Below, piece after piece: positions 7,387-45,714 of a DNA stretch of 64,000 nt (positions are counted from its first letter, which is position 1; each line of letters starts with the position of its first letter). A program made the translations under genes and the position numbers. The notes below the pieces were generated by a model that saw only the letters and a program-made list of their open reading frames with translations, did no database searches and was not told where the DNA came from. The stretch is from assembly GCA_014905635.1 (NCBI GenBank), contig JABVCE010000003.1, positions 186,001-250,000 of the forward strand. Reading direction: 5' to 3'. This stretch comes from Scenedesmus sp. PABB004. Its lineage: Eukaryota.

Positions 7387-8281
7387 CAGCGCCGCCGGGA
7401 GGGTGACGCCGCGCGCGCGCCCAGCAGCCGGCGCAGCAGCGACGCGAGCGGGGGCTCAAAGCACGGCGGCCCCAGCCACGCCGCCGGCGCGGCGGTCGCC
7501 AGCACAGGCGGCCGCGGTGCAGCTGGCGGCGGCGCAGCTGGCGCGGCGGGCGCCAGCACGGGCGACCGCGGTGCAGCTGGCAGCGGCGCAGCTGGCGCCG
7601 GCAAGGTGTGTGTGTGTGTATGTGGGGGGGGGGGGGTTCGGGCGGCGCGCGGGCTGAGCTTGGCGGCCAGCGGCGGCGCCTCGCGCGCCCACCACGCCCG
7701 CCGGCGCGGCCGCAGGCTGCCGCGCCGCTGCCGCCGCCGGCCAAGGAGAGCGCCCAGGAGCGGCTGAAGCGGCTCATGCAGGCGCAGCTGAACAAGGCGG
7801 CGCAGAAGGACTCGCTCGCGAGCGCGCAGAAGAAGATCCAGGTCTGTGCCGCGCCGCGCTGCCGCTGGCGGCGACGCGGGCCGGCCGGATGGGGCCGAGG
7901 GGCCCTTTTTTGGGGGGGGGGGGGCAGCGAGGCCCAGATCTGGGGCGCCACAGCGGGCGCTGCGCAGCCGCTGCGCTGTGCGGCGCGAGGTAGGGTAGGT
8001 GGCGCCCCGCAGCGGACGGCCCCGCCTCGCCCGCGCCCTGCTGACACGCCGCCGCCGCTGCACCCGCTGCTGGCCCCCTCCTCCCGCGCGCCGCGCCACG
8101 CCCCCGGCCGGCTGACTGGCGCCAGGCGGAGCGCGACAAGGTGGCGCGGCAGCAGATTGACCGCCTGGCGACCGCCGGCGGGCGCAGCGGCCGCTCGCCC
8201 TCGCCGGGCCGCGACTGGGACGGCTGGGACCGCTCGCGCTCGCCGCCGCGCTACGGCGGGCGCTCGCGGCGCTCCTCCTAG
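4689..8281 (+). CDS. CLASRP: CLK4-associating SR-rich protein-like (SWAP N-terminal/DRY_EERY domain plus RS domain), multi-exon
   Basis: MSYKSVMANYYHEQRAHVKKLK..; LVPWNGDAANLIDR/FDVRALLDF; RS-dipeptide tract 7170-7390; KESAQERLKRLMQAQLNK; TAG at 8279-8281 and TGTAA at 8351. Confidence 0.8.
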
Positions 8282-8392
8282 CTCAGCGCGCCGGCGGCCG
8301 GGGGTGTGAGGGCGGTGTGCGTGGTGGGGTGGGGGGGGGGGGGGCAGCTGTGTAACCCTCTGCGAGCGCTCCTTGTCTGTGGTCACGGGCAG

Positions 8393-8958
8393 TTGCGGCT
8401 GAAGCGCATCCTGTTTCTCCGTCGCTGTAGTTACGTGGTTAGAATTCCACGTTGTGGCCGTGGAGACGCGGGCTCGAATCCCGCCAGCGACAGACGTTTT
8501 AAACACTTTTGGACCCATTTTGGACGCAAAATGTGTCGCAAAGTGATGTGGTGATGTTTTGGGGCGGCGCGGGGCCGCTGCCGTGACGCCCGCTGCTGGC
8601 CCGCTGCTGCTGCCGCCGCTGCTGCCGCCGCTGCTGCCGCCGCTGCTGCTGCCGCTCGCGGCCATGGGTGTCGACAGCAGCAGCAACAGCACTGAGCAGC
8701 AGCACGGGCGCGGGGCCCAGCAGCGGTGACTGCATGCTGGCTGCGGTCGTGCGGCGGCCGCGGTGCAGCGGCGGGGTTGGGCGCCCCAACCGCGCCGCGC
8801 CCCGCCCACGCCAGTCCGCAGCGCCTCCGTCCACGCACTGCCCTCCGTCCACCGCCGGTACGACGAGCGCTGACACGCCAAGACCAGGGCGCCAGGGGCC
8901 GGGGAGCATCGGCCGCTGCCGCACCGCCCTTGCCGCCGCCGCGCCGCGGCGCAGGCCG
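8393..8958 (+). repeat. Left arm of ~565-bp inverted repeat (partner 13751-14315), contains tRNA-His
   Basis: ttgcggctgaagcgcatc...gcgcaggcc is the reverse complement of 13751-14315, with scattered substitutions and small indels. Confidence 0.95.
8421..8492 (+). tRNA. trnH-GUG: tRNA-His(GUG), variant copy with altered D-arm/A-box (possible pseudo-tRNA)
   Basis: Acceptor stem GTCGCTG/CAGCGAC, anticodon arm CCACG-TTGTGGC-CGTGG, T arm GCGGG-CTCGAAT-CCCGC, T4 terminator at 8497. Reads TAGTTACGTGG where the partner copy has TAGTTTAGTGG. Confidence 0.85.
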
Positions 8959-10035
8959 CACCCGCGCCGCGTCCGCTCCGTCCCGCAGGGAGTATGCCTG
9001 GAAACCAGGACGCGGCGCGCGGCGGTGGCGGCGGCGGGGCAGGGCGCTCCAGCGCCCGCGCCTGCTGCTGCTGCTGCCGCTGCGGCGCCGCCGCCGCGGG
9101 GCCCGGCCGGGCCCGGGGCGCCGCGCGGCCCGCGCGGGACGTGCAGCGCGCTGTGCGACGGCCCGTCATCGCGTCGCCGCTGCGCGCTGCGGCGGCGGCC
9201 GCATAAAGCCGCCCCGCCCCCCTTTCCCCCCAACGGCGCCCCCGCGATGCGCTGGATCCCACACCCGCGCCGCCGCCCGCGCCGCGCCACGCTTTGGCCG
9301 CGCCGCGCCGCGCGCCGCGCGCGCCCGCCATGGCGGCCCCGGGGCCGCCCCCGCCGGCCCTGGGAGCCGGCGGGGGGCCGCCCGCCCCCGCCGCCCCCGC
9401 GGGCGGGCCGCCGCAGCAGCAGCAGCAGCAGCAGCAGCAGGGCGCGGCGGCCGCCGCGGCCGCCGCGGCAGAGGCGGCGGCCGCCGACAGCGACGCCGAG
9501 GCGGCCAACGACGACGACGACGGCGCCGGCGGCGGCGGCGGCGGCTGGGCCGCCGGCACCGGCGCCCCGCGCGGGGCCGAGGTCACGGCGGCGGCCGTCG
9601 AGCAGCATACGGCACAGGGCGTACGGCAGCGACTGCCTGATCGTCTGATCGTCTCGGCCGTAATCGCCGCGCCCGACGAGCGGCGCTGCGCGGAGCAGGT
9701 GCGGTGGGCGGCGCGCGCGCTCGTCGACGCCGGCACGCCCACGAGCTGCATCGCGCACTCGGGGAAGGTGCGCGCCGCGCCGCGCCCGGGCAGCGCCCGA
9801 GGCGGTCACGGTCGCGGCTGGGCCGCGCGCGCGCGCCGTCGCGCCCGCGCCCCACGCCCCAGCCCCGACAACCCCCGCCGCCGCCGCCGCCCCGCCCTGC
9901 GCCCCCGCCGGGACGCCCCGACGCCCCAGCCGCGCCCCGCCGGCCGCCTGTCCGCCGCGCGCTTCACCATGGTGCTGGTGTTCCCGGTGCGCCGGGGCGA
10001 CCTCGCGCGCGGGCACGCAAGGCGGGCGCGCCATT

Positions 10036-10073
10036 GTTTGGAGGTTGACCGCGGCCGCGGTCAACCTCCAAAC
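10036..10073. repeat. Perfect 38-bp palindrome
   Basis: gtttggaggttgaccgcggccgcggtcaacctccaaac is its own reverse complement. Confidence 0.97.
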
Positions 10074-11371
10074 CACCTTGTGTGCCCGCGCGCGCCCGGG
10101 GCCGCGGCGCGGGGCGGGCTGGGGCGCGCGCGCGCGCAGCCTGCGCCGGCGCGCCGACTGCTCCCGCCGGCGTGCCGCCGCCGCCGCCTCCGCCGCCGCC
10201 GCGGCCGCCGCGCGCGCGGCCGCCCACGCGCGCAGGGGCCGTCCTTCCTGCACGTCGCGCACGGCGGCGACTACCCCGCGCGCGTGCTCGCGCTGCTGAC
10301 GCTCGCGGTGGGCAACCCGACCGCGCCGTACAGCATCGCCGTGCTCGAGGCGCTGGACATGCGCTGCAAGCCGGCCGACTGGGCCAAGCCCGAGGCGGGC
10401 AAGCTGAGCGCGGCGGCGGTCGCGCACCACGCGTACACGCACGCCAAGGGCATGCTCGGTGCGCGGCCGGGGGAGGCTCGAGGGCGCTGCCCGCCTGCGC
10501 GCCGCGGCGGGGCGCGCGCCGGCGCGTTGTCTTGCTCGCTTGGCTCACCCCCGGCCGCCGCCGCTCGTCCGCTCTCGCCCGCAGTCAAGGCGCTCTACGC
10601 CCGCGCGGCGGACGTGCTCTGCGCCAGCGTGCAGCCCGACGCGCCGGGCGCGTCGTTTCTCGACCCCGACTGCGCCGTCAAGCTCGACCACCTGAGCGCG
10701 GAGCAGCAGCGGCGGCCTGCCCGTGACGCAGCATGCGCGCGCTCGCGCGCGCGCGTGCTGCGTGCTGTGCACGCGCGAGTGCGTGCGACCTGTGCCGCGC
10801 AGCACGGCGCGTGTGACCGCACGCCCGTCCACACGCCCCCCCACCCCCTCCCCTCAGGCTGAGCGCCGTGGGCGCGCCCGTGCTGGCGATGTTTGCGGGC
10901 GGCGTGCTGCTGCCGCTGCTGCGCCTGATCGACGGGCCCGACGGCGTCATGGGCCTGCTGCTCCCCCGCAAGCGCATGGGCATGCTGGAGCTGAAGGTGC
11001 GCCTGCGCGCGCGAGGGCCCTGCCTGCTGCCGCTCTGATCAGAGCGCGCGTGCCGCCGCGGCGCCGCGCCGCCGCGCTGACTGCCACGCCCCGGCCCGGC
11101 TGCCCCTCCCCTCCCCTCCCCTCCCCGCCGCGCCACACAGAACCTTGTGCGCCTCGAGATTCACAGCAGGACCGCGGGCATCCCGCTCGGCCTGGCGGCA
11201 GTGTACCACCGCGGCGAGCGCACGATGACTGCGTTCTACGCCGAGGCGCGCGCGGACGGCTTTGCCGTGACCGTGGGCCTCGCCGAGGGCCCCGGCGACG
11301 GCGAGTCGGTGGCGCTCGTGCACCGCCCAGTGGCGTTCCACTTCCACGGCCGCGAGCCCGACAACGGTCCG

Positions 11372-11477
11372 CACGAGCTCGTCCAGCGCGGTTTGGACGT
11401 CCACGTCGAGCTCACTGATCTCGACCTTGACAAGTGAGCTCGACGTGGACGTCCGGACCGTGCTGGACGAGCTCGTG
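11372..11477 (+). repeat. Inverted repeat/hairpin, 45-bp arms with 16-nt loop
   Basis: 11372-11416 pairs with 11433-11477. The three differences are all G-U pairable on the + strand. Confidence 0.95.
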
Positions 11478-13750
11478 GTGACCACCAAGCCCAACAAGAA
11501 GACCAGCGGTGCGCAGCGGCCGCGCGCGCCGCGCGCGCGCGCGCGCGGGCGGGTGGTGCAACCATCCCCGCGCCCGCCGCCCACCCTGCCCCCACCGCCC
11601 GCCAGGCCCCAAGCCGGCCATGACGCCTGTGGGCCCTCCCGCTGTGGCGCTCGCGAGCGCCCCCATGCCCCGCGTGCTCATCGACACGACGACGCGCGCG
11701 CCCGGGCTGTACGTCGCCGCGGTCATCGCGCCGTGCCTGTTCTCGCAGGCGTGCGTGTCGGCGGAGCTGCTGCGCGCCGCCGAGGCCGAGGGCCTCGTCC
11801 CCGGCCCCGTGCACCTGGGCACCCCCAGCGGCAACGCGGTGCGAGCGCGCGCGCGCCGCGCGGCGGCGGGCGGCGCCTCTGCACCGCGCGCACGCCTTGC
11901 CCCGCCCGGCCCGGCCGCCGCCGACACATCCCTTCTCCCTGTGCCCCCCCCCCCCCCCCCCCCCAAACCTGCCCCGCGCGCCCAGGGCGCGCTCGCGATC
12001 GCGACCGACCTGGACGAGGCGCTGCGCGCCAACCCCGGCCTCGCGCAGGGGCCGGTGCTCCTCGCTGCGAACCCCGCCGCCATCAGGAAGTACGAGGTGC
12101 GGGCGCCGGTGTACGATGACCGCCCCGCGCCCGCGCGCCCGCACCGCCCGCCCACGCCGCGCTCAGGGCGTGCGCAAACCACTCGGTTTGCGCACTTCCA
12201 CTCGGTTTGCGCACTTCCTGAGCGCGGCGTGGCTGCTGATGGTGGAGGAGCTGACCGGCCTGGCCGAGGTGATGGGGGCGCTCGAGCGCTGGGCGCTGGG
12301 CGACGCCGGCATGACAGCGGCCAAGATGACCTCTCGCTCGCGCAGCCGAGGTGCTGATGCCGGTCGCCTCGCCGGCGCTGCGCCTGCGGCCGCCGGGCGA
12401 GGGCGAGACCGCGGGCGAGACCGCGGCGCGCCTGCGCGCGCTCGCGCCGCGCGCCTCCGCCGTGGCGCTCGCGGCGGAGGTGCAGGGGCTGGGCGGGGAC
12501 GCCCTTCGCTTCCCGTTTGCGGCGCTGGCCGACGCCCGCCGCCTCGGCCCGGGCTGGTGCGCCGCGGCGGCGCGCGGCATGCTCGGCGGCGCGCCGGCGG
12601 CGGCGGGGGCGGCGGAGGCAGAGGCGGCGGCGCCCGCTGCGGCGCAGCAGCCCGGCGCCTCGACGAGCGCTGCCGCGGCGGCGGGCGGCGCGGCGCCGGG
12701 CAGCCCCAGCCACGCCGCCGGCGGCGTGGCGGCCGCGGCGTCCACGCCGCCGCCGCCGGCCGCGCTGCGCCAGCGCCTGGACGCGGTCGGCACGGCCGCC
12801 GTCACGCGCCCCGTCGACGACCGGTCGCCGCGCACCGCGCACGGCGGCGCGGCAGCGCACGGCGCGGGCGAGCGCGGCGGCGGCGCGCCGGCGCCGGCGC
12901 GCCAAGGCTTCAAACCCCCGGTGCGCACGGGCGCGAGCGCGGGCGCCTCGGGCAGCGGTGCGGGGCCCGCGGCGCCGGCGCCGGCGGCGGCGCCGCCGCC
13001 GCAGCGGCACCAGCAGCAGCAGCAGCAGCAGCAGCCGCGCGCGTGCGCCGGGCTGTTCAAGCCGGCGGCGGCGCGAGGCGGCGCGCGCGCACGGCGCGGG
13101 CTCGCACGGCGGCGGCGGCGGCAGCGCGGGCAGCCACCGGCGGACGCCACAGCGGCCAGGGTGCGGCCTGGGGGGCCGCCGCGGCAGCGGCAGCGGCCGC
13201 GGCGCGCAGCGGCAGCGGCGCGCAGCGGCGGCAGCTCACCAGTAGTGCGTCGGCACAAACTGGATGCGGCGGCCGCCGTGCTTGGCCGCGCGGCGGACCA
13301 GGAGCTCGCACTGGCTCAGCGAGGAGTACATGGGCTGATACTCTGCGCGGGCGCGGCGCGGGGGCGACGGGGGGCGGGATGGCGGGAGCGCGATGGCGGG
13401 CGGCGTGAGGCGGCGGGGCGGCGGCGCAGCCGGGGCCGGGGCTGCAGCCGGCGCGCGAGGCGGGGCGGGGTGTCGCGGTGTGATGCAAGGCGGGGTGGGG
13501 CGCGGCGCGGCGGGGCGAGACGGGGCGCGGCGGGGCTCGCGGGCCGGCGGCGTGCGGCGAGTGTTTGCCCGCGCATGCTGCTGCGCTCCCGCCACAGCAG
13601 TTGTCGTAGTGCTGCCGAACTGCGCGGCAGGCTTTGGGCAGGTGTGCAAGCCTGTGCCCCTATGCCGTACGCGCTGCTTTGCCTCACCGCACCGCTCAGC
13701 GCCCCACTAAGGAGGCGCGCCCTGGCTCAGAACGTGTAACGGCGCGGCGT

Positions 13751-14315
13751 GGCCTGCGCCGCGGCGGCGGCAAGGACGGCGCGGCAGCGGCCGATGCTCC
13801 CGGCCCCTGGCGCCCTGGTCCTGGCGTGTCAGCGCTCGTCGTAGCGGCGGTGGACGGAGGGCAGTGCGTGGACGGAGGCGCTGTGGCGGACTGGCGTGGG
13901 GGCGCGGCGCGGTGGGCGCCCGCAGCCGCGCCCAACCCCGCCGCTGCACCGCGGCCGCCGCACGACCGCAGCCAGCATGCAGTCACCGCTGCTGGGCCCC
14001 GCGCCCGTGCTGCTGCTCAGTGCTGTTGCTGCTGCTGTCGACACCCATGGCCGCGAGCGGCAGCAGCAGCGGCGGCAGCAGCGGCGGCAGCAGCGGCGGC
14101 AGCAGCGGGCCAGCAGCGGGCGTCACGGCAGCGGCCCCGCGCCGCCCCAAAACATCACCACATCACTTTGCAACAACATTTTGCGTCCAAATGGGTCCAA
14201 AAGTGTTTAAAACGTCTGTCGCTGGCGGGATTCGAGCCCGCGTCTCCACGGCCACAACGTGGAATTCTAACCACTAAACTACAGCGACGGAAAACAAGAT
14301 GCGCTTCAGCCGCAA
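13751..14315 (-). repeat. Right arm of ~565-bp inverted repeat (partner 8393-8958), contains tRNA-His
   Basis: Reverse complement of the left arm; homology stops at ..cagccgcaa|ttaggg. Confidence 0.95.
14217..14288 (-). tRNA. trnH-GUG: tRNA-His(GUG), canonical copy
   Basis: GTCGCTGTAGTTTAGTGGTTAGAATTCCACGTTGTGGCCGTGGAGACGCGGGCTCGAATCCCGCCAGCGACA forms a full cloverleaf close to plant cytosolic tRNA-His. It has a downstream TTTT and an upstream TTTATATT element. Confidence 0.96.
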
Positions 14316-14475
14316 TTAGGGAATATAAATCTGTAGTATCAAAGCAGATTTTTTGCCGTCCAGGCCGATTTTCGCCCTGCCAGCCCCCCAGGAATGCTCG
14401 CCGGACCAACTCAGTTTTTTCAATATCGAGCCCGCGCGGGCCCGCCGGCGTTGTGCGCGCAATCGAAAGCAAATG
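14316..14475 (-). promoter_or_regulatory. AT-rich upstream region of the canonical tRNA-His, TATA-like element at 14322-14329
   Basis: AT-rich island in a very GC-rich background. TTTATATT lies about 35-40 nt upstream of tRNA +1 and is absent upstream of the left copy. Confidence 0.45.
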
Positions 14476-15078
14476 AAAGGAAAGCGCGCCCGCCTCGCGG
14501 CCCGCCCGTTGCCGCGGGCCCGCACGCCGCTGTGCACGAACAACAAGCACACAGCAGCTGGGAATGAGCCTCCCCCCGGCAGCGCCCCCCGGCAGCGCCG
14601 CTCGCCCGGGAGCCCAGCCAGCGGGCAGCACGCCGCCGCGCGCGCACCTTGAGCCGCCGCCGCACGCGCGGCTCACGCCACACGAGCGCCGCGCGGCGCG
14701 GGGCGCGGCGCGTGGGCCTCACCGGAGCTGCCGCCCAGGTGCCAAGCGCGCCGCGCCGGCCGCCGGCCGCGCACGCTCGACGCTGCTGCCCGCACGACGG
14801 GCCGCGACGGGCTGCAGCCGCGGCGCCCGTCCCCCGCTGCGCGCGTGGGCCGTCGAGGGGGTCGCCGGTGCGGCGCCCGAGTGACGCCGCGCCCGACTGG
14901 CCGTGGTCCGCGAGCCGGCAGTTGCGCTGACCCGCCCGCTCCGCGCCCGCGCGTCCCCTGCCCGCGCCTCCCCGGCCACGTCATTGAGGCAGCTTAAAAC
15001 GCTCGCTCAGGCGGCTGGCGGGCCGCCACGCGCTGCTGGAGCGGGCCCGGCCTCGCGGCGCAGCGCGGGAACGCGAGA

Positions 15079-35324: not shown

Positions 35325-35860
35325 CGCGCCCCCCGGTCGCGCCCGACCGCTAGGCCGCCCGGCCGGCGCACAGAGCGCGTGATCGGCGTCGCCCGTCCCC
35401 GGGGCGCGCGGCCACAGCGCCTGGCGCGTCGGTGGCCGCTGATGCTCCTGCTGCCGCCCGGCGCGCCGCGTGGCGCAGCCTGAGCAGCGGGCGGGATGCG
35501 GGCTCGCACGCGCGTCGACACCACGCCCGGAACGCTGCGGATTGGGTGCGCGCGGCGGCAGCAGGCAGGGTGCAGTCGGCGTGTGGACCCGAAACCCCTG
35601 CTGCCTGGAGCGGGCCTGGCCTCACGCAGCCATCCAACCCCATCGCCGGACCCGCCGCCGCCGCAGTGCGCCGCCGCCGGCAGCAGCGACGGCGGCGCCG
35701 CAGCAGCGGGTGCAGCGCGCGCCGCCGCCGCTGGCCGCGCGGGGGGGGGGGGGGGGGGCGCCGCGGCAGCAGCTGGCAGCTGCTCCACGCTGCTCCCCGC
35801 GCGGCGGCGCCTGAGCCAGCGGCTCGCCGCCGCAGCAGCTGCCGGCGGTTGGCCCAGAAC

Positions 35861-37452
35861 ATGCGCGCGCCGGGCTCGCCAGCGGCGGCCTCGCCGCGCT
35901 GGCTGACCGTGGCGCCGTCGCGCAAGGCGAGCTGCTGCTGCCGGCTGCACCACCAGGGCGTGCTTGGGGCGCCGCGCGTGCCACGGCGCCCGCTGCGCTG
36001 CACAGCGTCCAACGCGTGCGCAGGACCGGCACACCGGCCTCGCGTACGCCTGCTACTTCACGCTCGGCAGCGGCGTGCTGGCGCCCTGGAACGCCTTCAT
36101 CACCGGTGCGGCGCGCCCTGGCGGGGCCGGTGACCCCGCGGCGCGCGGCGAGCCGCCCGCGTGCGACGCGCCGCCGGGGCCGCGCGCCGCGGTGCGCGCA
36201 CCACCCCGCAGCCGCCGACTACTACGAAGCCGTCTTCCCCGGCCGCCACGTCGACCGCCTCTTCACGGTGAGGCAGGGATCCCGAAAGCAGCCCAGGCGG
36301 CCCAGGGCAGGGCGCCGCCAAGCGCTGCGCGGCGCGGCGCGGCGGCGCCGCCCCACCGCCGCCTGACGCGCCGGTCCGCGCCGCGCGTCAGGTGACGTAC
36401 CTGCCCATCTGCCTCGCGCTGCTGGGCGTGATGATCCGCTGGAGCGGCCTGCCCCTGCGCCCACGCATCCTCACCGCCTTTGCCGGCTTCACCGCCGTCA
36501 TGCTCGTCGTGCCACTCGTGCGCCCCACGCCCCACGCCGCGCCGCTGCCGCCGCTGCCCGGTGCGGGCGCCCGCCGACCGCCCCGACCGCGCGCCCGCGG
36601 CCGCAGGTGGACGGCGTGCTGGTGGGCACCGAGGGCGTGGGCCCGCCCGCCGCGCTCGGCGTGCTCCTCGCCTGCGTCGCCGCGGTCGGCGTGCTGGATG
36701 GCCTGAGCCAGGGCGCGGTCTACGCTGACGCGGCGCAGCTGCCGCCGCGCTACACGCACGTGCGCGCTGCTGCTGGCAGCGCGCCAGCCCGCGGCGGAGA
36801 GGGCGGCGCGGGCGGGGCACGTCCCGCGCCGCGCGCCCCACGCGCGCGCCGGCCCCGCCGCCCGCGGCGCTCCGCACGGGCGCAGGCTGTTGTCGGCGGC
36901 ACGGCGAGCTCGGGCGTGCTCATCTGCCTCCTGCGCATTGCGACCAAGGCCAGCCTGCCGGCGACGAGGGCTGGGCTGCGCCGCAGCACGGCCCTGTACT
37001 TTGCTGCCGCCGGCTGCATCAGCGCCGTGTGCTGGGTGATCTTCCACTCGGTGCTGCCCCGCCTGGGCGTGGTGCGCCACTTCCGCGCGGCCGCGGCAGG
37101 TGCGCCGTGCCGCGCCGCGCCGCGCCACGGCGTGCGCTGTGCCACGGCGGCGTCTGCGGCCTCATTTGCTCCGCCGCCGCCGCCGCCGCCGTGGGCGCAG
37201 GGGAGAAGCTGGTTGAGCTCAGCCCGCAGCCGAGCCTGCGCCACGACGAGCCGCCCGTGGCGCTGGAGGTGGCTACGGCCGACGACCAGGTGCGGCCGCC
37301 CCAGCGCGCTGACGGCACGGCGCGGCCCGCTGCGCGCTCACGGTCGGGGTCGCGTGCTGCTGCCACCGCCGCTGTCGCCGCCCCGCAGCGCCCGCTGGTG
37401 CGGCGGCTCAGCGGCAGCAGCTCCACGGACCCGCAGCACCTCGCGGCGGGGA

Positions 37453-37483
<31 letters not shown>

Positions 37484-38219
37484 GCGGCGGCGGCGGCGGC
37501 CACGAGCCCCTGGGCCGCAGCCCACGCAGCAGCCTGCTGGGGGGCCTGGGGCCGGGCCCGTCCGGCGGCGGCGTGGCGCCGCGCGCCGCGCTCGACTGGC
37601 GGCACGTCGTGGCCGAGGCGTGGCGGCTGGCGGCCGCAATGGTGCTGGTTTATGTCGTGACGCTGTCCATCTTCCCGGGCGTGCTCGCTGAAGACACGCG
37701 GGTGGGTGCGCAGCGCGAGCCACCACCAACGCGGCCCGGCACCGCCGCCGACGCGCTGGAAGCCGATGCCCGCGCCGCCTTCGCCGCGCGAGCCGCCGCC
37801 GCCGCCGCGACGCGCCGCCGCAACTGCGGCAGAGCTCTGTGCTGGGCAGCTGGTACCCCATCCTGCTCATCACGGCGTTCAACGTGGCCGACCTGGCCGG
37901 CAAGAATGTGCCGCTCTTCGGGCTGCCCCTGCGCGCGGCGGCGCGGCCGGGCGTGCTGCTCGCTGCAGCGGCCGCGCGTGCCGCTTTTGTGCCGGCGTTC
38001 CTGTTCGCCGGCCGCAACGCGTCGTCGGCGGTGGGCATCATGACCGCCCTCACCGTGTGCCTGGGCCTGTCCAACGGCTTCATGACCGCGCTGCTGATGG
38101 TCGCCGCGCCCGCGAGCGTGGAGTCGGACGAGGCGGGGCTGGTCGAGGGCGTCATGGTCTTTGCGCTCGTGCTGGGCCTCACGCTGGGCGCGGCGGCCGG
38201 GTTCCTCTGGCTCCTCTGA
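35861..38219 (+). CDS. ENT: Equilibrative nucleoside transporter (ENT/SLC29), copy 1; apparent +1 shift in (GGC)n near 37483
   Basis: YFTLGSGVLAPWNAFITA/ADYY; DGLSQGAVYADAAQLPPRYT; GTASSGVLICLLRIATKA; YVVTLSIFPG; WYPILLITAFNVADLAGK; LGLSNGFMT; LVLGLTLGAAAGFLWLL*. Confidence 0.9.
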
Positions 38220-38724
38220 CGGCGCTGCACTCGGCCCGGGCGCGCGGGTGGCAGGCGGCGCGCACAGCCCGCGCGCGGAGGCGTGCTGCGCGCGGGGCGC
38301 CGCCGGCCGGGTGACTCCCCGCCCCAATGGCGGGGACGAGCGGAGCGGTCCGCGCAGACGCAGCCTGGCGCTGCCCAGCGCGCTGGCGTGCGACCGCGCT
38401 GGTGTGATCTGGGCGCAGCATGTCGTTCAAAGTTTGAGCGCAAACCAAGCGCGAGTGCCGCCCCTGCGCCGCCACAAAGCGGCGCGTCCACCGGCGGCCC
38501 GCCCTCCCGTCGCGGCCCCACCCTCGCTCCCCACCCTCTCGCAGCCCTGCACGCCAGGCTCGGCCGCCGTCGGCACCCACTGCTGCCATCGCTCGCCACT
38601 GCGTGTACCGCCACCGCGGCGCACCTGCAGCCTGCCGACACGCCAGACGCAACCCGCTCGCACGCCCTGCCGAGCGCCGCCGCGCTAGACCTCATCGCAG
38701 CGTCGTCTATTTGAGCTGCGCGCC

Positions 38725-39853
38725 ATGGCATCGCAGGTGCGGTGCCGCCCGCCCACGCGCCGCGCCGCCGAGGGCCGGCGCCCGGCGCGGTGCTTGCGCA
38801 CGACCCCTCTGCCCCTCTCCGCGCGGCCGCGTGGCCGGCCGGCGCCCGGCGCGGCTCGTGCTGCGCCCGCCCACACCCGAGCTGCTGCCGCGCCCGCAGT
38901 GCGAGCCCGAGGCCCGCCGCGGCCTGGCGCTGGTCCCCACCGACGGCGACGGCTCCGCCTGCCCCTCCACGGTCGGCAGCGGCCGCTGCAGCCCCGCCAG
39001 CAGCGGGCCGTGCAGCCCCGCGGGCGGCGGCCGCTCTGTGCCGGTCGAGGCGCTCGCGGAGGCGCTCTCGTGCGGCCTGTGCAGCGGGCCCGTGGCCAGC
39101 AGCCTGGTGCTGAGCTGCAGCCACATCTTTTGCGGCGCCTGCCTCGCGACCTTCCTGCAGACGCGCCCCGCGTGCCCCACGTGCTCCATGGAGCTGCGCG
39201 GCCTGCCCGTGCGCTGCCTCGCCATCGACAAGGTCGCCGCCGCCATGCTGCCCGCGCTCGACCCCGACGCGCGCGACGCGCACGCGCGCCGCCAGCGCGA
39301 CGGCGCGGGCGCGGCTGACAAGGTCAACAAGATGTTTTGGCACCTCGCGCCGCCGCCCCTGCCGCCCGCCGGCGGCGCCGCCGCCGGCGCCCCGGGCGGC
39401 CTCGACTTTGGCGGCGGCCTGGCGGCGCTCGACGGCGGCGCGCTCGGCGGCGCCCCCCACCCCGGCGCGCTCGGCGGCGGCCTGCACGGCCGGCACGGCG
39501 CGCCGGCGGGCGGGCACTTTGGCGGCCTGCTGCCGCCGCTCGGCGGCGGCATGCACGCCGGCGCCGCGCCCAGCGCGCAGATGCTGCACCTCGCCATGGC
39601 GGCGCAGCAGATGGCGCAGGCACAGCAGCTGGCGCAGGCGCAGCAGATGGCGCACATGCAGCAGATGGCGCACGTGGCGCAGCAGCTGGGCGGCGTGGGC
39701 CTCGGCCCCGCGTGCCGCCAGGCGCCGCAGCCCGACGGGGGGCTCGCGCAGGCCGCGTTCATGGCGGGCCTGGGCGTGTCGGCGCCCCTCGTGGGCCCGG
39801 GTCACCAGGACCTGCAGCAGCTCAGCACCGTGATGAGCCTCTGCCAGGTGTGA
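38725..39853 (+). CDS. C3HC4 RING-finger protein with G/Q-rich C-terminus, 2 exons
   Basis: MASQ, intron 38737-38898, then ..LSCGLCSGPVASSLVLSCSHIFCGACLATFLQTRPACPTC..RCLAIDKV. Confidence 0.85.
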
Positions 39854-40400
39854 GGCGAGCGCGGAGCGGCACGGCCGGGGCACCACGCGCTGCTGCGGCG
39901 CGCGGCCGACGGCCCGCGCCGCCGGCAGGCGTGCAGCGCCGCGCGTGCGGGGGCAGGCGGGCGGGGCGGCCGCGGCAGGGGCAGACCGGGTCGGACGGGG
40001 GCGGGGGGGGGGGCGTAGGCAGCCAGCGCATCTGGTAGAGCCAGGCACTCGGTAGGGATAGGACGGTGACGGTGGCGGCGGCGGCGCCCGCCTGGCTGCA
40101 CAGACCAGCACAGACAGCACAGACAGGACAGACGCACTGCGGCCGCTAGCGCGGCGGTGCCGGACAGCCGGGCTCGCGAGAGATGCGGCCCGGCGCTCGC
40201 AGGTTGTGCAGGGATGCGGTTGGGCGCGCGCGCGCCGCAGGACGCGCGCGCACGAGCGCGCGCGGCGGCGGCGGGGCGGCGCGACATGTATAAACAAACA
40301 AACACACCACCAAAAGTGCACACAACCCGGACGTCGAGTAACGTTGGTCTGTCGGCTGTGCGTTACACAGCCGCCCGACGAGCGCAGCGCATCGCTCAGC

Positions 40401-40468
40401 TCAGCTGGCGGGGCGGCCGTGGAACACGTCCACCACGTCGCCCTGCGGCGGCCGCGGCGGCCAGCCCC

Positions 40469-40501
<33 letters not shown>

Positions 40502-40820
40502 CCGCCGCGCCGCGCTGCCAGCCACCCGGGGGCGGCGGCCCGCTGCGCGGCGAGCGCGGCCGCCGCGGGGCCGCGGCGCCGTAGCCGGGGTCTGCGCCGA
40601 GCAGGACCGCGCTGACGCCAAAGACCTGCGTCGCCGTGTACGCCGCGAGCGCCGCGCCGCCCACGGGCAGCACAAACTGTGGGCGGCGCGCGGCGGCGGG
40701 CGTGAGCCGTGGCGGCGGGCGCGAGCGCGGCATGGCGCCGGGCGCGCGCCGCACGTTGAGCACGCCCTTGAGCAGGCCCAGCGCCAGCAGCAGCAGCGCG
40801 CCCTTCACGCTGACCTCAAT
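40401..40820 (-). pseudogene. 5'-truncated duplicate of the 44928-45714 gene
   Basis: The last two exons (IEVSVKGALLLLALGLLKGVLN/FVLPVGG..) are present. The first exon and ATG are replaced by the duplication junction. Confidence 0.75.
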
Positions 40821-41364
40821 CTGCGGCAGCGCCAGGCGCGCGGGTCGCCGAGCGCCGGGCGCGGGTTGGCCCGGGCGTGCGCCGCCGCTGCCGCTGCCAG
40901 CGGCGCTGTCGACGTCGTCGCCACCGTCAGCGACGAGCACGAAGCTGTCGTCGCCAGCACGAGGCGCCCCGGTCGCGCCTGACCGCTGGCCGCCCGGCCG
41001 GTGATCGGCGAGATCGGCGTCACCCGTCCTCGTGCGTCACCCGTCCTCGTGCGCGCGGCCACAGCGCCTGGCGCGCCCCGTGGCCACTGACACTTCCTGC
41101 TGCCCGGAGCGTGGGCGCAGCCTGAGCAGCGGGCGGGATCCGGGCTCGCGCGCGCGTCGCGCCCGGAACGCTGCTCCGAGTTTGGGGGCGCGCGAGCAGC
41201 GTGTGCGGTCGGCGTCTGGAGAGCGCGGAAGCCCTAGCCGGTGCTTCCAGGGCTCTCTCTCTTTCCTGCCGCCACCCGCGCGGCCCCTCCCCACAAAACA
41301 CACCCGCGCCCGCTGCCGCAGTACGACGCTGCCGGCAGCAGCGTTTGCGCCACAGCAGCACAAA

Positions 41365-43764
41365 ATGCACGCGCCGGGCTCGCCAGCGGCGGGCGCGGCC
41401 TCGCCGCCGTGCTGGCGGCTCACCGTGGCGCCGCCGCTCACCGTGGCGCCGTCGCTCAAGGCGAGCTGCTGCGGCGGCTGCACGAGGGCCCGGCTGCGCG
41501 CGCCACGCGCGCCACGGCGGCGCAATGGTGGGCCGCCACGGCGGCGCCGCCGCTGGTCACACCGCCGCGCGCGCGGGCGCCCGGGGCCCGCGCCCGCGCA
41601 GGACCGGCACACCGGCCTCGCGTACGCCTGCTACTTCACGCTCGGCAGCGGCGTGCTGGCGTCCTGGAACGCCTTCATCACCGGTGCGGCGCGCCCTGAC
41701 AGGGCCAGTGACCCCGCGGCGCGCGGCGGCGCCCCGGCGCGCGGCGAGCCGCCCGCGTGTGACGCGCCGCCGGGGCCGCGCGCCGCGGTGCGCGCACCGC
41801 CCCGCAGCCGCCGACTACTACGAAGCCGTCTTCCCCGGCCGCCACGTCGACCGCCTCTTCACGGTGAGGCAGGGATCCCGAAAGCAGCCCAGGCGGCCCA
41901 GGGCAGGGCGCCGCCGAGCGCGGCGGGGCGCGGCGCGGCGGCGCCGCCCCAGCGCCGTCTGACGCGCTGCGCGGACCGGCGCGGCGCGGCGGTTGCGTTG
42001 TTGTTGTTGTTGTTGTTGCACAACAACCGGTCCGCGCCGCGCGTCAGGTGACGTACCTGCCCATCTGCCTCGTGGTGCTGGGCGCGATGGTCCGCTGGAA
42101 CGGCCTGCCCCTGCGCCCACGCATCCTCACCGCCTTTGCCGGCTTCACCGCCGTCATGCTCGTCGTGCCGCTCGTGCGCCCCACGCCCCGCGCCGCGCCG
42201 CTGCCGCCGCTGCCCGGCGCGGGCGCCCGCCACGCGGCGCGCGCCGACCGCCCCAACCGCGCCGACCGCGCGCCCGGCGCGCCCGCGGCCGCAGGTGGAC
42301 GGCGTGCTGGTGGGCACCGAGGGCGTGGGCCCGCCCGCCGCGCTCGGCGTGCTCCTCGCCTGCGTCGCCGCGATCGGCGTGCTGGATGGCCTGAGCCAGG
42401 GCGCGGTCTACGCTGACGCGGCGCAGCTGCCGCCGCGCTACACGCACGTGCGCGCTGCTGCTGGCAGCGCGCCAGCCCGCGGCGGAGAGGGCGGCGCGGG
42501 CGGGGCACGTCCCGCGCCGCGCGCCCCACGCGCGCGCCGGCCCCGCCGCCCGCGGCGCTCCGCACGGGCGCAGGCTGTTGTCGGCGGCACGGCGAGCTCG
42601 GGCGTGCTCATCTGCCTCCTGCGCATTGCGACCAAGGCCAGCCGGCCGGCGACGAGGGCTGGGCTGCGCCACAGCACGGCCCTGTACTTTGCTGCCGCCG
42701 GCTGCATCAGCGCCGTGTGCTGGGTGATCTTCCACTCGGTGCTGCCCCGCCTGGGCGTGGTGCGCCACTTCCGCGCGGCCGCGGCAGGTGCGCCGTGCTG
42801 CGCCGCGCCGCGCCGCGGCGTGCGCTGTGCCACGGCGGCGTCTGCGGCCTCATTTGCTCCGCCGCCGCCACCGCCGCCGTGGGCGCAGGGGAGAAGCTGG
42901 TTGAGCTCAGCCCGCAGCCGAGCCTGCGCCACGACGAGCCGCCCGTGGCGCTTGAGGTGGCTACGGCCGACGACCAGGTGCGGCCGCCCCAGCGCGCTGA
43001 CGGCACGGCGCGGCGTGCGCCTTGCTCGCGGTTGGGGTCACGTGCTGCTGCCACCGCCGCTGTCGCCGCCCCGCAGCGCCCGCTGGGGGCCTGGGGCCGG
43101 GCCTGTCCGGCGGCGGCGTGGCGCCGCGCGCCGCGCTTGACTGGCGGCGCGTCGTGGCCAAGGCGTGGCGGCTGGCGGCCGCAATGGTGCTGGTTTATGT
43201 CGTGACGCTGTCCATCTTCCCGGGCGTGCTCGCTGAAGACACGCGGGTGGGTGCGCAGCGCGAGCCACCACCAACGCGGCCCGGCACCGCCGCCGACGCG
43301 CTGGAAGCCGATGCCCGCGCCGCCTTCGCCGCGCGAGCCGCCGCCGCCGCCGCGACGCGCCGCCGCAACTGCGGCAGAGCTCTGTGCTGGGCAGCTGGTA
43401 CCCCATCCTGCTCATCACGGCGTTCAACGTGGCCGACCTGGCCGGCAAGAATGTGCCGCTCTTCGGGCTGCCCCTGCGCGCGGCGGCGCGGCCGGGCGTG
43501 CTGCTCGCTGCAGCAGCCGCGCGTGCCGCTTTTGTGCCGGCGTTCCTGTTCGCCGGCCGCAACGCGTCGTCGGCGGTGGGCATCATGACCGCCCTCACCG
43601 TGTGCCTGGGCCTGACCAACGGCTTCATGACCGCGCTGCTCCTGGTCGCCGCGCACGCGAGCGTGGAGTCGGACGAGGCGGGGCTGGTCGAGGCCGTCAT
43701 GGTCTTTGCGCTCGTGCTGGGCCTCACGCTGGGCGCGGCGGCCGGGTTCCTCTGGCTCCTCTGA
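41365..43764 (+). CDS. ENT: Equilibrative nucleoside transporter copy 2; ~143-bp deletion in the central-loop exon with an apparent frameshift (possible pseudogene)
   Basis: Same exon set as copy 1, with APWN changed to ASWN and KASLP to KASRP. The exon from 43077 lacks the equivalent of 37399-37541 and reads out of frame. Confidence 0.75.
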
Positions 43765-44269
43765 CGGCGCTGCACTCGGCCCGGGCGCGCGGGTGGCAGG
43801 CGGCGCGCACAGCCCGCGCGCGGAGGCGTGCTGCGCGCGGGGCGCCGCCGGCCGGGTGACTCCCCGCCCCAATGGCGGGGACGAGCGGAGCGGTCCGCGC
43901 AGACGCAGCCTGGCGCTGCCCAGCGCGCTGGCGTGCGACCGCGCTGGTGTGATCTGGGCGCAGCATGTCGTTCAAAGTTTGAGCGCAAACCAAGCGCGAG
44001 TGCCGCCCCTGCGCCGCCACAAAGCGGCGCGTCCACCGGCGGCCCGCCCTCCCGTCGCGGCCCCACCCTCGCTCCCCACCCTCTCGCAGCCCTGCACGCC
44101 AGGCTCGGCCGCCGTCGGCACCCACTGCTGCCATCGCTCGCCACTGCGTGTACCGCCACCGCGGCGCACCTGCAGCCTGCCGACACGCCAGACGCAACCC
44201 GCTCGCACGCCCTGCCGAGCGCCGCCGCGCTAGACCTCATCGCAGCGTCGTCTATTTGAGCTGCGCGCC

Positions 44270-44430
44270 ATGGCATCGCAGGTGCGGTGCCGCCCGCCCA
44301 CGCGCCGCGCCGCCGAGGGCCGGCGCCCGGCGCGGTGCTTGCGCACGACGCCTCTGCCCCTCTCCGCGCGGCCGCGTGGCCGGCCAGCGCCCGGCGCGGC
44401 TCGTGCTGCGCCCGCCCACACCCGAGCTGC
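44270..44430 (+). pseudogene. RING gene remnant (exon 1 and part of intron only)
   Basis: MASQ exon and intron match 38725-38885, then the sequence jumps to the equivalent of ~39904. About 1.0 kb, including all of exon 2, is deleted. Confidence 0.85.
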
Positions 44431-44927
44431 GGCCGCCGGCCCGCGCCGCCGGCAGGCGTGCAGCGCCGCGCGTGCGGGGGCAGGCGGGCGGGGCGGCCGC
44501 GGCAGGGGCAGACCGGGTCGGACGGGGGCGGGGGGGGGGGCGTAGGCAGCCAGCGCAGCTGGTAGAGCCAGGCACTCGGTAGGGATAGGACGGCGACGGT
44601 GGCGGCGGCGGCGCCCGCCTGGCTGCACAGACCAGCACAGACAGCACAGACAGGACAGACGCACTGCGGCCGCTAGCGCGGCGGTGCCGGACAGCCGGGC
44701 TCGCGAGAGATGCGGCCCGGCGCTCGCAGGTTGTGCAGGGATGCGGTTGGGCGCGCGCGCGCCGCAGGACGCGCGCGCACGAGCGCGCGCGGCGGCGGCG
44801 GGGCGGCGCGACATGTATAAACAAACAAACACACCACCAAAAGTGCACACAACCCGGACGTCGAGTAACGTTGGTCTGTCGGCTGTGCGTTACACAGCCG
44901 CCTGACGAGCGCAGCGCATCGCTCAGC

Positions 44928-44995
44928 TCAGCTGGCGGGGCGGCCGTGGAACACGTCCACCACGTCGCCCTGCGGCGGCCGCGGCGGCCAGCCCC

Positions 44996-45037
<42 letters not shown>

Positions 45038-45714
45038 CCGCCGCGCCGCGCTGCCAGCCACCCGGGGGCGGCGGCCCGCTGCGCGGCGAGCGCGGCCGCC
45101 GCGGGGCCGCGGCGCCGTAGCCGGGGTCTGCGCCGAGCAGGACCGCGCTGACGCCAAAGACCTGCGTCGCCGTGTACGCCGCGAGCGCCGCGCCGCCCAC
45201 GAGCAGCACAAACTGTGGGCGGCGCGCGGCGGCGGGCGTGAGCCGTGGCGGCGGGCGCGAGCGCGGCATGGCGCCGGGCGCGCGCCGCACGTTGAGCACG
45301 CCCTTGAGCAGGCCCAGCGCCAGCAGCAGCAGCGCGCCCTTCACGCTGACCTCAATCTGCGGAAGCGCCGGGCGCGGGCGGGCGGCACGCGGGCGGTCGG
45401 CACGCGGTCGGCGCGCGGGCCGTCCGCCGCTGCCGGCCCACCTTGGCGCGTGGCGCGCCGGGCGGCGCCAGGCTCTGCAGCACGTCCGCTGCGCGCTCCA
45501 CCACGGCGCCCGCGCCACGAGCGACGCTGGCGGCCAGCGAGTCGAGCATGCCGCCCAGCGGGTCGCCGCCGGGCTGCTGGGGCGGCGCGCTGCTGCTGTA
45601 TGCCCGCGCCGGTGCCGCGCCGCCGCGCCGCTGCTGCCGCGCCTGCTGCGGCAGCGCCTGGCGGCGTCCAGCAGGCGCCGGGGCCGGGCGGGAAGGGCGC
45701 TGGCGCAGGAGCAT
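44928..45714 (-). CDS. Hypothetical membrane protein with transit-peptide-like N-terminus, 3 exons
   Basis: MLLRQRPSRPAP..ARAYSSS..LQSLAPPGAPRAK/IEVSVKGALLLLALGLLKGVLN/FVLLVGGAALAAYTATQVFG..GDVVDVFHGRPAS*; TGTAA on the minus strand at ~44890. Confidence 0.7.

Follow-up and report, generated by a model that had tools for sequence, protein, structure and literature searches.

Positions 8393–14315 of a 64-kb stretch of DNA from Scenedesmus sp. PABB004 (contig JABVCE010000003.1, positions 186,001–250,000; hereafter, the window) hold a single protein-coding gene enclosed by two inverted-repeat arms of 0.57 kb, each of which carries an inward-facing tRNA-His gene. This structure is probably the scar of a one-off inverted duplication at a tRNA gene. 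A preliminary description of the locus had put forward three models, namely, an inversion through staggered breaks or template switching that duplicated its own flank, an invertible cassette, and a fold-back/Pack-type mobile unit, and had ranked the locus as the best candidate in the window for an undescribed system. The first of these models fits everything seen here, with neither of its two mechanisms being singled out. The proposed rank is not supported, and the locus is better placed in an ordinary class of rearrangement.

Geometry and divergence of the inverted repeat

The two arms are reverse complements, as had been claimed. Gapped blastn aligned 8393–8962 with 14315–13741 (545 of 584 columns identical, 23 gap columns), and in a global alignment the arms are separated by 16 substitutions and 8 insertion–deletion (indel) events. 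Within the 64 kb, the sole match of each arm is its partner. The outer edges are sharp and are located 28 nt upstream of each tRNA-His gene. On the other side of the tRNAs the arm sequence continues for 466–470 nt (∼465 in the preliminary description), and the inner edges fade at ∼8958–8962 and 13741–13744. The extent proposed earlier thus stands, except that the inner end of the right arm falls at 13741–13744 and not at 13751, a trivial difference. The enclosed interior comprises 8963–13740 (4.78 kb). The arms, their collinear pieces and the tRNA-related features are as follows.

8393–8962, plus strand: left arm, consisting of a 28-nt leader, tRNA-His, an AT-richer trailer, a CTG/CCG microsatellite and a GC-rich inner part
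13741–14315, minus strand: right arm, delimited by repeat search, blastn and global alignment
8415–8652/14057–14294, inverted: collinear repeat piece, 238 nt, 92% identity
8606–8784/13928–14106, inverted: collinear repeat piece, 179 nt, 100% identity
8816–8903/13799–13886, inverted: collinear repeat piece, 88 nt, 97% identity
8896–8962/13741–13807, inverted: collinear repeat piece, 67 nt, 85% identity
8538–8784 (partner ∼13928–14171), no strand assigned: substitution-free tract, 247 nt, which includes the 179-nt block of 100% identity at 8606–8784
8421–8492, plus strand: tRNA-His(GTG), left copy, with U13A and A14C (8433–8434), two marked non-pairs
14217–14288, minus strand: tRNA-His(GTG), right copy, a canonical cloverleaf with all stems paired and TTTT 5 nt past the 3′ end
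14316–14348, minus strand: AT-rich stretch immediately beyond the right arm, containing TTTATATT (−33 to −40 relative to the right tRNA)

Substitutions are unevenly distributed along the arms. In left-arm coordinates, four of them fall in 8393–8537, none in 8538–8784 and 12 in 8785–8962, and identity drops to ∼90% in their inner third, where four indels are found. When 16 substitutions were scattered uniformly over 561 sites in simulation, a substitution-free run of at least 247 nt had P = 0.0013. The simplest cause suggested by this tract is a later gene conversion between the arms; alternatively, constraint or selection may have acted on both copies. Gene conversion would show that the arms can pair, so that rare crossovers inverting the interior would be possible. 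The indels include 3- and 10-nt events outside homopolymers. Since not only indels but also substitutions distinguish the arms, they represent two loci and not one locus assembled twice. In the AT-richer trailer (8493–8537 versus 14172–14216), two single-base indels of opposite sign are found 15 nt apart. They would compensate each other in a small minus-strand open reading frame (ORF) of the left arm and, being two events, are not significant.

The two tRNA-His copies

According to ARAGORN, the only tRNA genes in the window are the two tRNA-His(GTG) copies, which face inward (8421–8492, plus strand; 14217–14288, minus strand), as previously described. With an Rfam gathering score of 29, the left copy scores 57.0 bits and the right copy 66.1 bits. 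The right copy has the GTG anticodon, A73, no encoded G−1, both A and B boxes and the T-run that are to be expected of a tRNA-His gene. The left copy shares all of these features except for a mismatch in the D-stem and a C that replaces the conserved A at position 14, in the A box. The B box, the anticodon arm and the terminator are identical in both copies. Both have C at −1; G−1 of tRNA-His is added by Thg1.

The copies also differ in what precedes them. From −60 to −29, the right tRNA has a sequence of 69% AT containing TTTATATT, versus 34% AT for the left tRNA, whose sequence beyond −28 is the GC-rich 3′ flank of a DRY_EERY (CLASRP-like) gene. In plant and algal tRNA genes, as described in PMC13578239, transcription factor IIIB (TFIIIB) and RNA polymerase III (Pol III) use an AT-rich or TATA-like region located no more than ∼50 nt upstream. 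Within ∼50 nt such a region is present upstream of the right tRNA and absent upstream of the left one. By analogy, the AT-rich stretch at 14316–14348 is the likely site at which TFIIIB binds upstream of the original gene. The left tRNA-His is probably a weakened or decaying copy that is losing its function. Because a canonical tRNA with an AT-rich upstream region stands on the right against a changed and truncated one on the left, we infer that the right-hand locus is the ancestral and functional one.

A probable one-off inverted duplication

In the scenario that we favor, the original locus would be the right-hand one, where a functional tRNA-His gene, transcribed by Pol III and preceded by its AT-rich region, would have been followed by ∼470 nt of non-coding DNA. 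A 0.57-kb segment starting 28 nt upstream of this tRNA would have been copied, inverted, to the far side of the neighboring gene. It would have landed immediately downstream of the DRY_EERY gene, with the left copy truncated at −28. Two routes, which we hold to be about equally likely, would lead to the same product. In one of them, the 4.8-kb gene would have been inverted, with the right-hand break staggered across the tRNA segment and fill-in leaving that segment at both ends; the enclosed gene would then formerly have been on the minus strand, convergent with the DRY_EERY gene (3′ end to 3′ end). In the other, a template switch during replication or repair would have pasted an inverted copy without the gene being turned. 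Since that event, the arms would have drifted by the 16 substitutions and 8 indels, with the left tRNA losing function and the right one remaining functional, and at least one gene conversion between the arms would have followed, leaving the 247-nt tract. The ancestral copy, the mechanism, the gene conversion and the loss of function in the left copy are all reconstructed from the present-day sequence.

Both new junctions are intergenic: the left one is 38 nt after the TGTAA of the DRY_EERY gene and the right one 2–5 nt after the TGTAA of the enclosed gene. The end of the left-hand neighbor is marked by two features.

8279–8281, plus strand: stop codon of the DRY_EERY gene, the upstream neighbor of the left arm
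8351–8355, plus strand: TGTAA after the DRY_EERY stop codon, 38 nt before the outer edge of the left arm

A tandem duplication at 35.3–45.4 kb of the window shows that duplication is locally active. Among Drosophila inversions, 17 of 29 carry inverted duplications (median 321 bp, range 46 bp to ∼1.9 kb), which have a mean identity of ∼88%, often involve one breakpoint region only and are explained in that account by staggered breaks and fill-in (PMC1885836). In yeast, tRNA genes are reported to be in ∼threefold excess at breakpoints and at sites of gene gain (PMC2675101), and a break beside a tRNA gene, as would have occurred here, agrees with that association.

Several points weigh against this scenario. 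Both its polarity, with the right copy being ancestral, and its reliance on a single event are deduced and could be otherwise. The left tRNA still folds and scores above the Rfam threshold, so that it may be functional. Finally, the 247-nt tract (P ∼ 0.001) indicates that the divergence of the arms is not simple drift and fits continuing exchange or selection; were either of these responsible for the tract, the structure would amount to more than a scar.

The enclosed gene

The interior carries one plus-strand, multi-exon gene, in keeping with the single transcription unit described earlier. To detect coding regions, we used codon-position GC together with log-odds of codon usage, for which other ORFs of the window served as the training set. 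The signal appears in changing plus-strand frames from the ATG at 9330 to ∼13100 and reaches log-odds of 28.8 per 120 nt; the position of the coding 3′ end, ∼13100, is uncertain.

9330–13100, plus strand: coding part of the enclosed gene, with GTGCGC-type donors at 9768, 10459, 10997, 11509, 11839 and 12097 and with CAG acceptors

There are roughly nine or more introns, and both the donor type and the codon usage match those of the neighboring genes. An ad hoc exon-chaining script yielded a product of ∼840–855 codons, the details of which are provisional. Two signals reported in the preliminary description are in place: a TATA-like motif (ATAAA at 9202) and, on the plus strand, a TGTAA at 13735–13739, 2–5 nt short of the right arm. 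TGTAA acts as a poly(A) signal in green algae, and the copy at 13735–13739 is likely to be that of the enclosed gene. The window contains five TGTAA motifs on the plus strand and eight on the minus strand, and several plus-strand genes are without one. Because TGTAA is not a universal 3′ signal in the window, it is only suggestive as evidence for a transcript end.

The gene had been termed an orphan, and this holds within the limits of the Pfam and HMMER searches. No Pfam family was detected in the 38 stop-to-stop ORFs of at least 100 aa over 8900–13800, and single exons searched with E-values of up to 10 produced only three faint matches (E = 0.07–0.17), far below the cut-offs. HMMER retrieved no match among 1.84 billion representatives with a 510-aa frame-0 reading of 9330–10859, which corresponds to exons 1–3 read through their introns. 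Sequence searches against PDB with queries from the enclosed gene gave no matches, and the best scores in ESM Atlas (0.81 and 0.77) were within the range of those for shuffled sequences. A word-indexed protein search with 11482–12354 and 11141–11431, at ‘longer’ lengths only, was blank. It was also blank for a control, the ORF with the Mpv17 exon (Pfam E = 1.6e−19), and since this positive control failed too, we give no weight to the blanks for sequence of this composition.

Other gene models were tried for the same region and rejected. A small gene inside the arm, taken either as a minus-strand ORF ending at the TAA beside the left tRNA or as starting at ATG 8664 with a GTGAC donor, is unsupported: its third-position GC is too low, its codon signal stems from the CTG/CCG repeat, its phases join no downstream exon and it has no Pfam match. 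For a minus-strand gene starting in the right arm, chained models scored ∼20 versus 149 for the plus-strand gene (in an earlier scoring), and they rested on one exon-like piece. On the minus strand at 13240–13345, opposite the 3′ part of the enclosed gene, there is a stretch that resembles an exon. Its codon log-odds (11.8 per 120 nt) is in keeping with that of true exons, and both a CAG acceptor and a GTGAGC donor are present; neither Pfam nor PDB yielded a match for it, and no convincing adjacent exons were found. The minus strand of 7900–15000 contains no TGTAA.

Fold-back hairpins in the enclosed gene

The geometry of arm, spacer and inverted arm had been noted to recur inside the gene at 45/16, 19/0 and 11/4 nt, and all three of these fold-backs were recovered by repeat search and RNA folding.

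11366–11416/11433–11483, plus strand: large hairpin, 51-nt arms, 16-nt spacer, −109.4 kcal/mol, z −14.3
10036–10073, plus strand: perfect 38-nt palindrome (19/0) in the first intron, −32.8 kcal/mol, z −6.4
12152–12180/12204–12232, plus strand: nested hairpin, 29-nt arms at 93% with an inner 11/4 hairpin, −60.7 kcal/mol, z −8.5

The figure of 45 corresponds to an uninterrupted 45-bp run in the RNA fold of the large hairpin. The nested hairpin region (12152–12232) also carries a 19-nt tandem duplication and is situated between coding segments. Perfect stems of at least 12 nt with spacers of at most 20 nt number 13 in the window; 20 first-order Markov simulations produced one to eight such stems each, none of them longer than 16. 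The two longest stems (19/0 and 22/16) are alone in not being pure G+C runs, and both are inside the enclosed gene. Of 75 short-spacer inverted repeats, the 25 longest include only three with a complementarity of at least 90%, and all three are again in the enclosed gene, which covers 7% of the window. The local clustering of hairpins is thus real and, with all three strong hairpins in one gene, the term ‘hotspot’ used for it in the preliminary description is fair.

The large hairpin contains three mismatches within its 45-bp run, all of which are G·U on the sense strand, and it folds at −109.4 kcal/mol in the sense and at −102.0 kcal/mol in the antisense direction. The sense-strand G·U bias (P ∼ 0.04 by a rough estimate) is a weak hint of constraint at the RNA level. 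Arm 1 and the spacer together (11366–11432, 67 nt) are an inverted copy of the exon sequence that follows. As assembled, these 67 nt shift the frame and lead to a stop at 11435; when they are removed in silico, no stop interrupts the frame as far as the donor at 11509 or in the exon after it. Judged by these frames, the 67-nt segment is a fold-back insertion, and unless it is spliced out the protein is truncated. The exon-chaining script proposed a 58-nt intron (11381–11438, GTCCAG...GAG), which could remove the hairpin and has weak sites. A GTGAGC donor-like site is located at 11434, at the start of the second arm and beside the loop.

Region 11366–11483 folds as a near-perfect 57-bp RNA hairpin inside a coding exon. 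Rfam returned only sub-threshold matches to microRNA families for this region (30.7 and 29.1 bits, with gathering scores of 93 and 61). A hairpin of this kind could be a Dicer substrate.

Alternative explanations

By geometry alone, the long, sharp-ended terminal inverted repeats around a gene without relatives might represent a fold-back/Pack-type mobile element, in which the arms would be the terminal inverted repeats with a captured tRNA gene and the interior would be the cargo. We regard this as highly improbable. No direct repeat, however short, is common to the sequences that flank the arms (left, ...CACGGGCAG; right, TTAGGGAAT...), which agrees with the earlier remark that no target-site duplication is visible, and no further copy of either arm or interior is present within the 64 kb. 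No transposase motif had been noticed either, and Pfam indeed detects no transposase, integrase, recombinase or reverse-transcriptase family in the 38 interior ORFs, although a transposase may act in trans from elsewhere in the genome. Moreover, the would-be cargo has roughly nine or more introns, with the GTGCGC donors and codon usage of its surroundings. Fold-back elements typically have internal tandem subrepeats, whereas the arms have none, apart from the short CTG/CCG run. An assembly artefact, i.e. a chimeric or mis-joined contig with a false inverted duplication, is scarcely credible. Chimeric long reads can create inverted duplications, but 16 substitutions and 8 indels (those of 3 and 10 nt being outside homopolymers) distinguish these arms, and a unique and coherent gene of 4.8 kb separates them, each arm adjoining a different unique flank with a recognizable gene of its own.

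If the 0.57-kb arms recombined, the 4.8-kb interior would flip, either passively or as a switch that is put to use. The 247-nt substitution-free tract, together with the 179-nt block of 100% identity, is the expected trace of such exchange, and the size of the arms fits that of inverted repeats serving as substrates for recurrent inversion, as described for human inversions (PMC3961182). Still, we consider an invertible segment unlikely, as homogenization is not pervasive (the inner third is ∼90% identical, with four indels), the assembly shows one orientation, and the ATG and the only AT-rich upstream motif would move along with the gene, with no obvious effect on expression. Neither the 38 interior ORFs nor the ORF translations scanned with Pfam across the window contain a recombinase or integrase family; outside 8900–13800, the scan covered ORFs with codon periodicity only (38 from 1–26 kb and 59 from 25.5–64 kb). 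Because no recombinase is present and the start region of the gene is inside the segment, we see no switch logic. The same substitution-free core is compatible with purifying selection on both copies, as would be the case if both sides were functional, either as paired tRNA-gene chromatin boundaries or as duplicated regulatory DNA under selection; the identity of the B box, anticodon arm and terminator points in this direction, and tRNA genes do have boundary activity in yeast and human. This is nonetheless very improbable, given that the left copy has a changed A box and no AT-rich upstream region and that the conserved core is largely CTG/CCG microsatellite without any Rfam or Pfam match. 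There is also a slim chance that the arms keep exchanging and occasionally turn the gene, the locus being a tRNA-anchored hotspot of template switching and gene birth. It may then be young and fast-changing and a possible source of hairpin-derived small RNAs, and its fold-backs, at 38 nt, 118 nt and 5.9 kb, may have one local cause, such as replication stalling at tRNA genes.

Relation to known systems

The one-off inverted duplication favored here most closely resembles the staggered-break duplications of Drosophila (Ranz et al. 2007, PMC1885836), in which a non-repetitive flank is likewise found once per end, in inverted orientation. The size and identity observed here (570 bp, 93%) fall in the range given for those duplications (median 321 bp, ∼88%), of which it is also said that often one breakpoint region is duplicated and that one copy tends to decay (PMC1885836). 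Apparently ancestrally unique sequence is found inverted at both ends of the segment (545/584 columns; the arms are otherwise unique in the 64 kb), and neither Pfam nor repeat matches within the 64 kb revealed a transposable element or dispersed repeat at the breakpoints. Unlike in the Drosophila cases, a single 4.8-kb gene and not a large block is involved, the duplicated piece contains a tRNA gene, the organism belongs to the green lineage, and the inversion itself is presumptive.

The edge of the duplication, 28 nt from a tRNA gene, and the adjoining gene without detectable relatives recall the tRNA genes at yeast breakpoints and gene-gain sites (Gordon, Byrne and Wolfe 2009, PMC2675101), although what is described there is a statistical association over many events and what we have here is a single case. 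Anti-parallel pairs of identical tRNA genes (Bermudez-Santana et al. 2010, PMC2888827) are alike in that two copies of the same isoacceptor are close to each other in opposite orientation. Those pairs, as characterized in that study, are consecutive loci in a cluster, whereas here 5.7 kb and a protein-coding gene separate the copies and ∼470 nt of non-tRNA flank has been duplicated as well.

Fold-back/Pack-type transposons share with our locus the long terminal inverted repeats around a cargo that is not a transposase, and differ from it by their target-site duplications, multiplicity and subrepeat structure, of which our locus shows none within the 64 kb, nor any other sign of mobility. Inversion mediated by inverted repeats is exemplified by the flip-flop of the plastid inverted repeat and by the yeast 2-micron circle. 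Among human polymorphic inversions (Aguado et al. 2014, PMC3961182), inverted repeats also flank a unique segment and show signs of exchange. Unlike such inverters, the locus is seen in one orientation in the assembly, no recombinase was found in the ORFs scanned, and the arms are short and partly diverged.

Genomic setting

The window is gene-dense nuclear DNA of a very GC-rich green-lineage organism. Its G+C content is 75–83% in every 2-kb bin and ∼79% over the 64 kb, and reaches ∼92% at third codon positions of confident exons. Such values are unusually high for a eukaryotic nuclear genome. Spurious long ORFs are found on either strand, one of them of 974 aa. Pfam matches to the ORF translations are often divided over adjacent frames, as exons would be. 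When the exon of ribosomal protein eL18 was compared with eL18 chains, the top group scored 158–166 bits and every other match at most 117 bits; the entry codes of the top group are presumably those of plant species. Pfam also identifies the genes flanking the structure as those named in the preliminary description, the left-hand one being DRY_EERY (CLASRP-like) and the right-hand one Mpv17_PMP22. The genes recognized by Pfam are as follows.

PHD-finger protein, cyclophilin, DRY_EERY (CLASRP-like) splicing regulator, Mpv17/PMP22 and SURF4
WD40/Gemin5-like protein, transaldolase, polyprenyl synthase and ribosomal protein eL18
THH1/TOM1, two nucleoside transporters, DnaJ/CSL, bZIP and EMP70

The tandem direct duplication mentioned above consists of two copies of ∼4.5–5.5 kb (35328–40844 and 40964–45378) and is located 22 kb from the tRNA arms. 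Its blocks are 77–98.6% identical (92–98.6% for the long ones), and each copy contains a nucleoside-transporter gene (PF01733). About 1 kb of copy 1 (∼38897–39902), including a RING-finger region, is without a counterpart in copy 2. A smaller tandem repeat with a period of 96 nt is present in the PHD-finger gene region at 1729–2006 (182 nt, 96.7% self-identity at a shift of 96). Searches of metagenome contigs gave no exact match to the 72-nt right tRNA, and the 597 pattern matches obtained there with the SURF4 exon included none confirmed by tblastn.

Implications

The inverted duplication of tRNA-His does not open up a new kind of system. To our knowledge, the class of inversion-coupled duplications has been elucidated chiefly in flies and yeasts. 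If our reading is correct, the locus would be a clean and small green-lineage example of this class of rearrangement and would lend further weight to tRNA genes as markers of fragile sites. It would also provide a dated pair of tRNA genes, one with and one without its upstream promoter context, in which the decay of a tRNA gene could be watched. The concentration of the three strong hairpins of the window in the enclosed gene, one of them containing the frame-breaking 67-nt fold-back, in turn makes template-switch mutation directly visible, and may prove more useful than the main finding.

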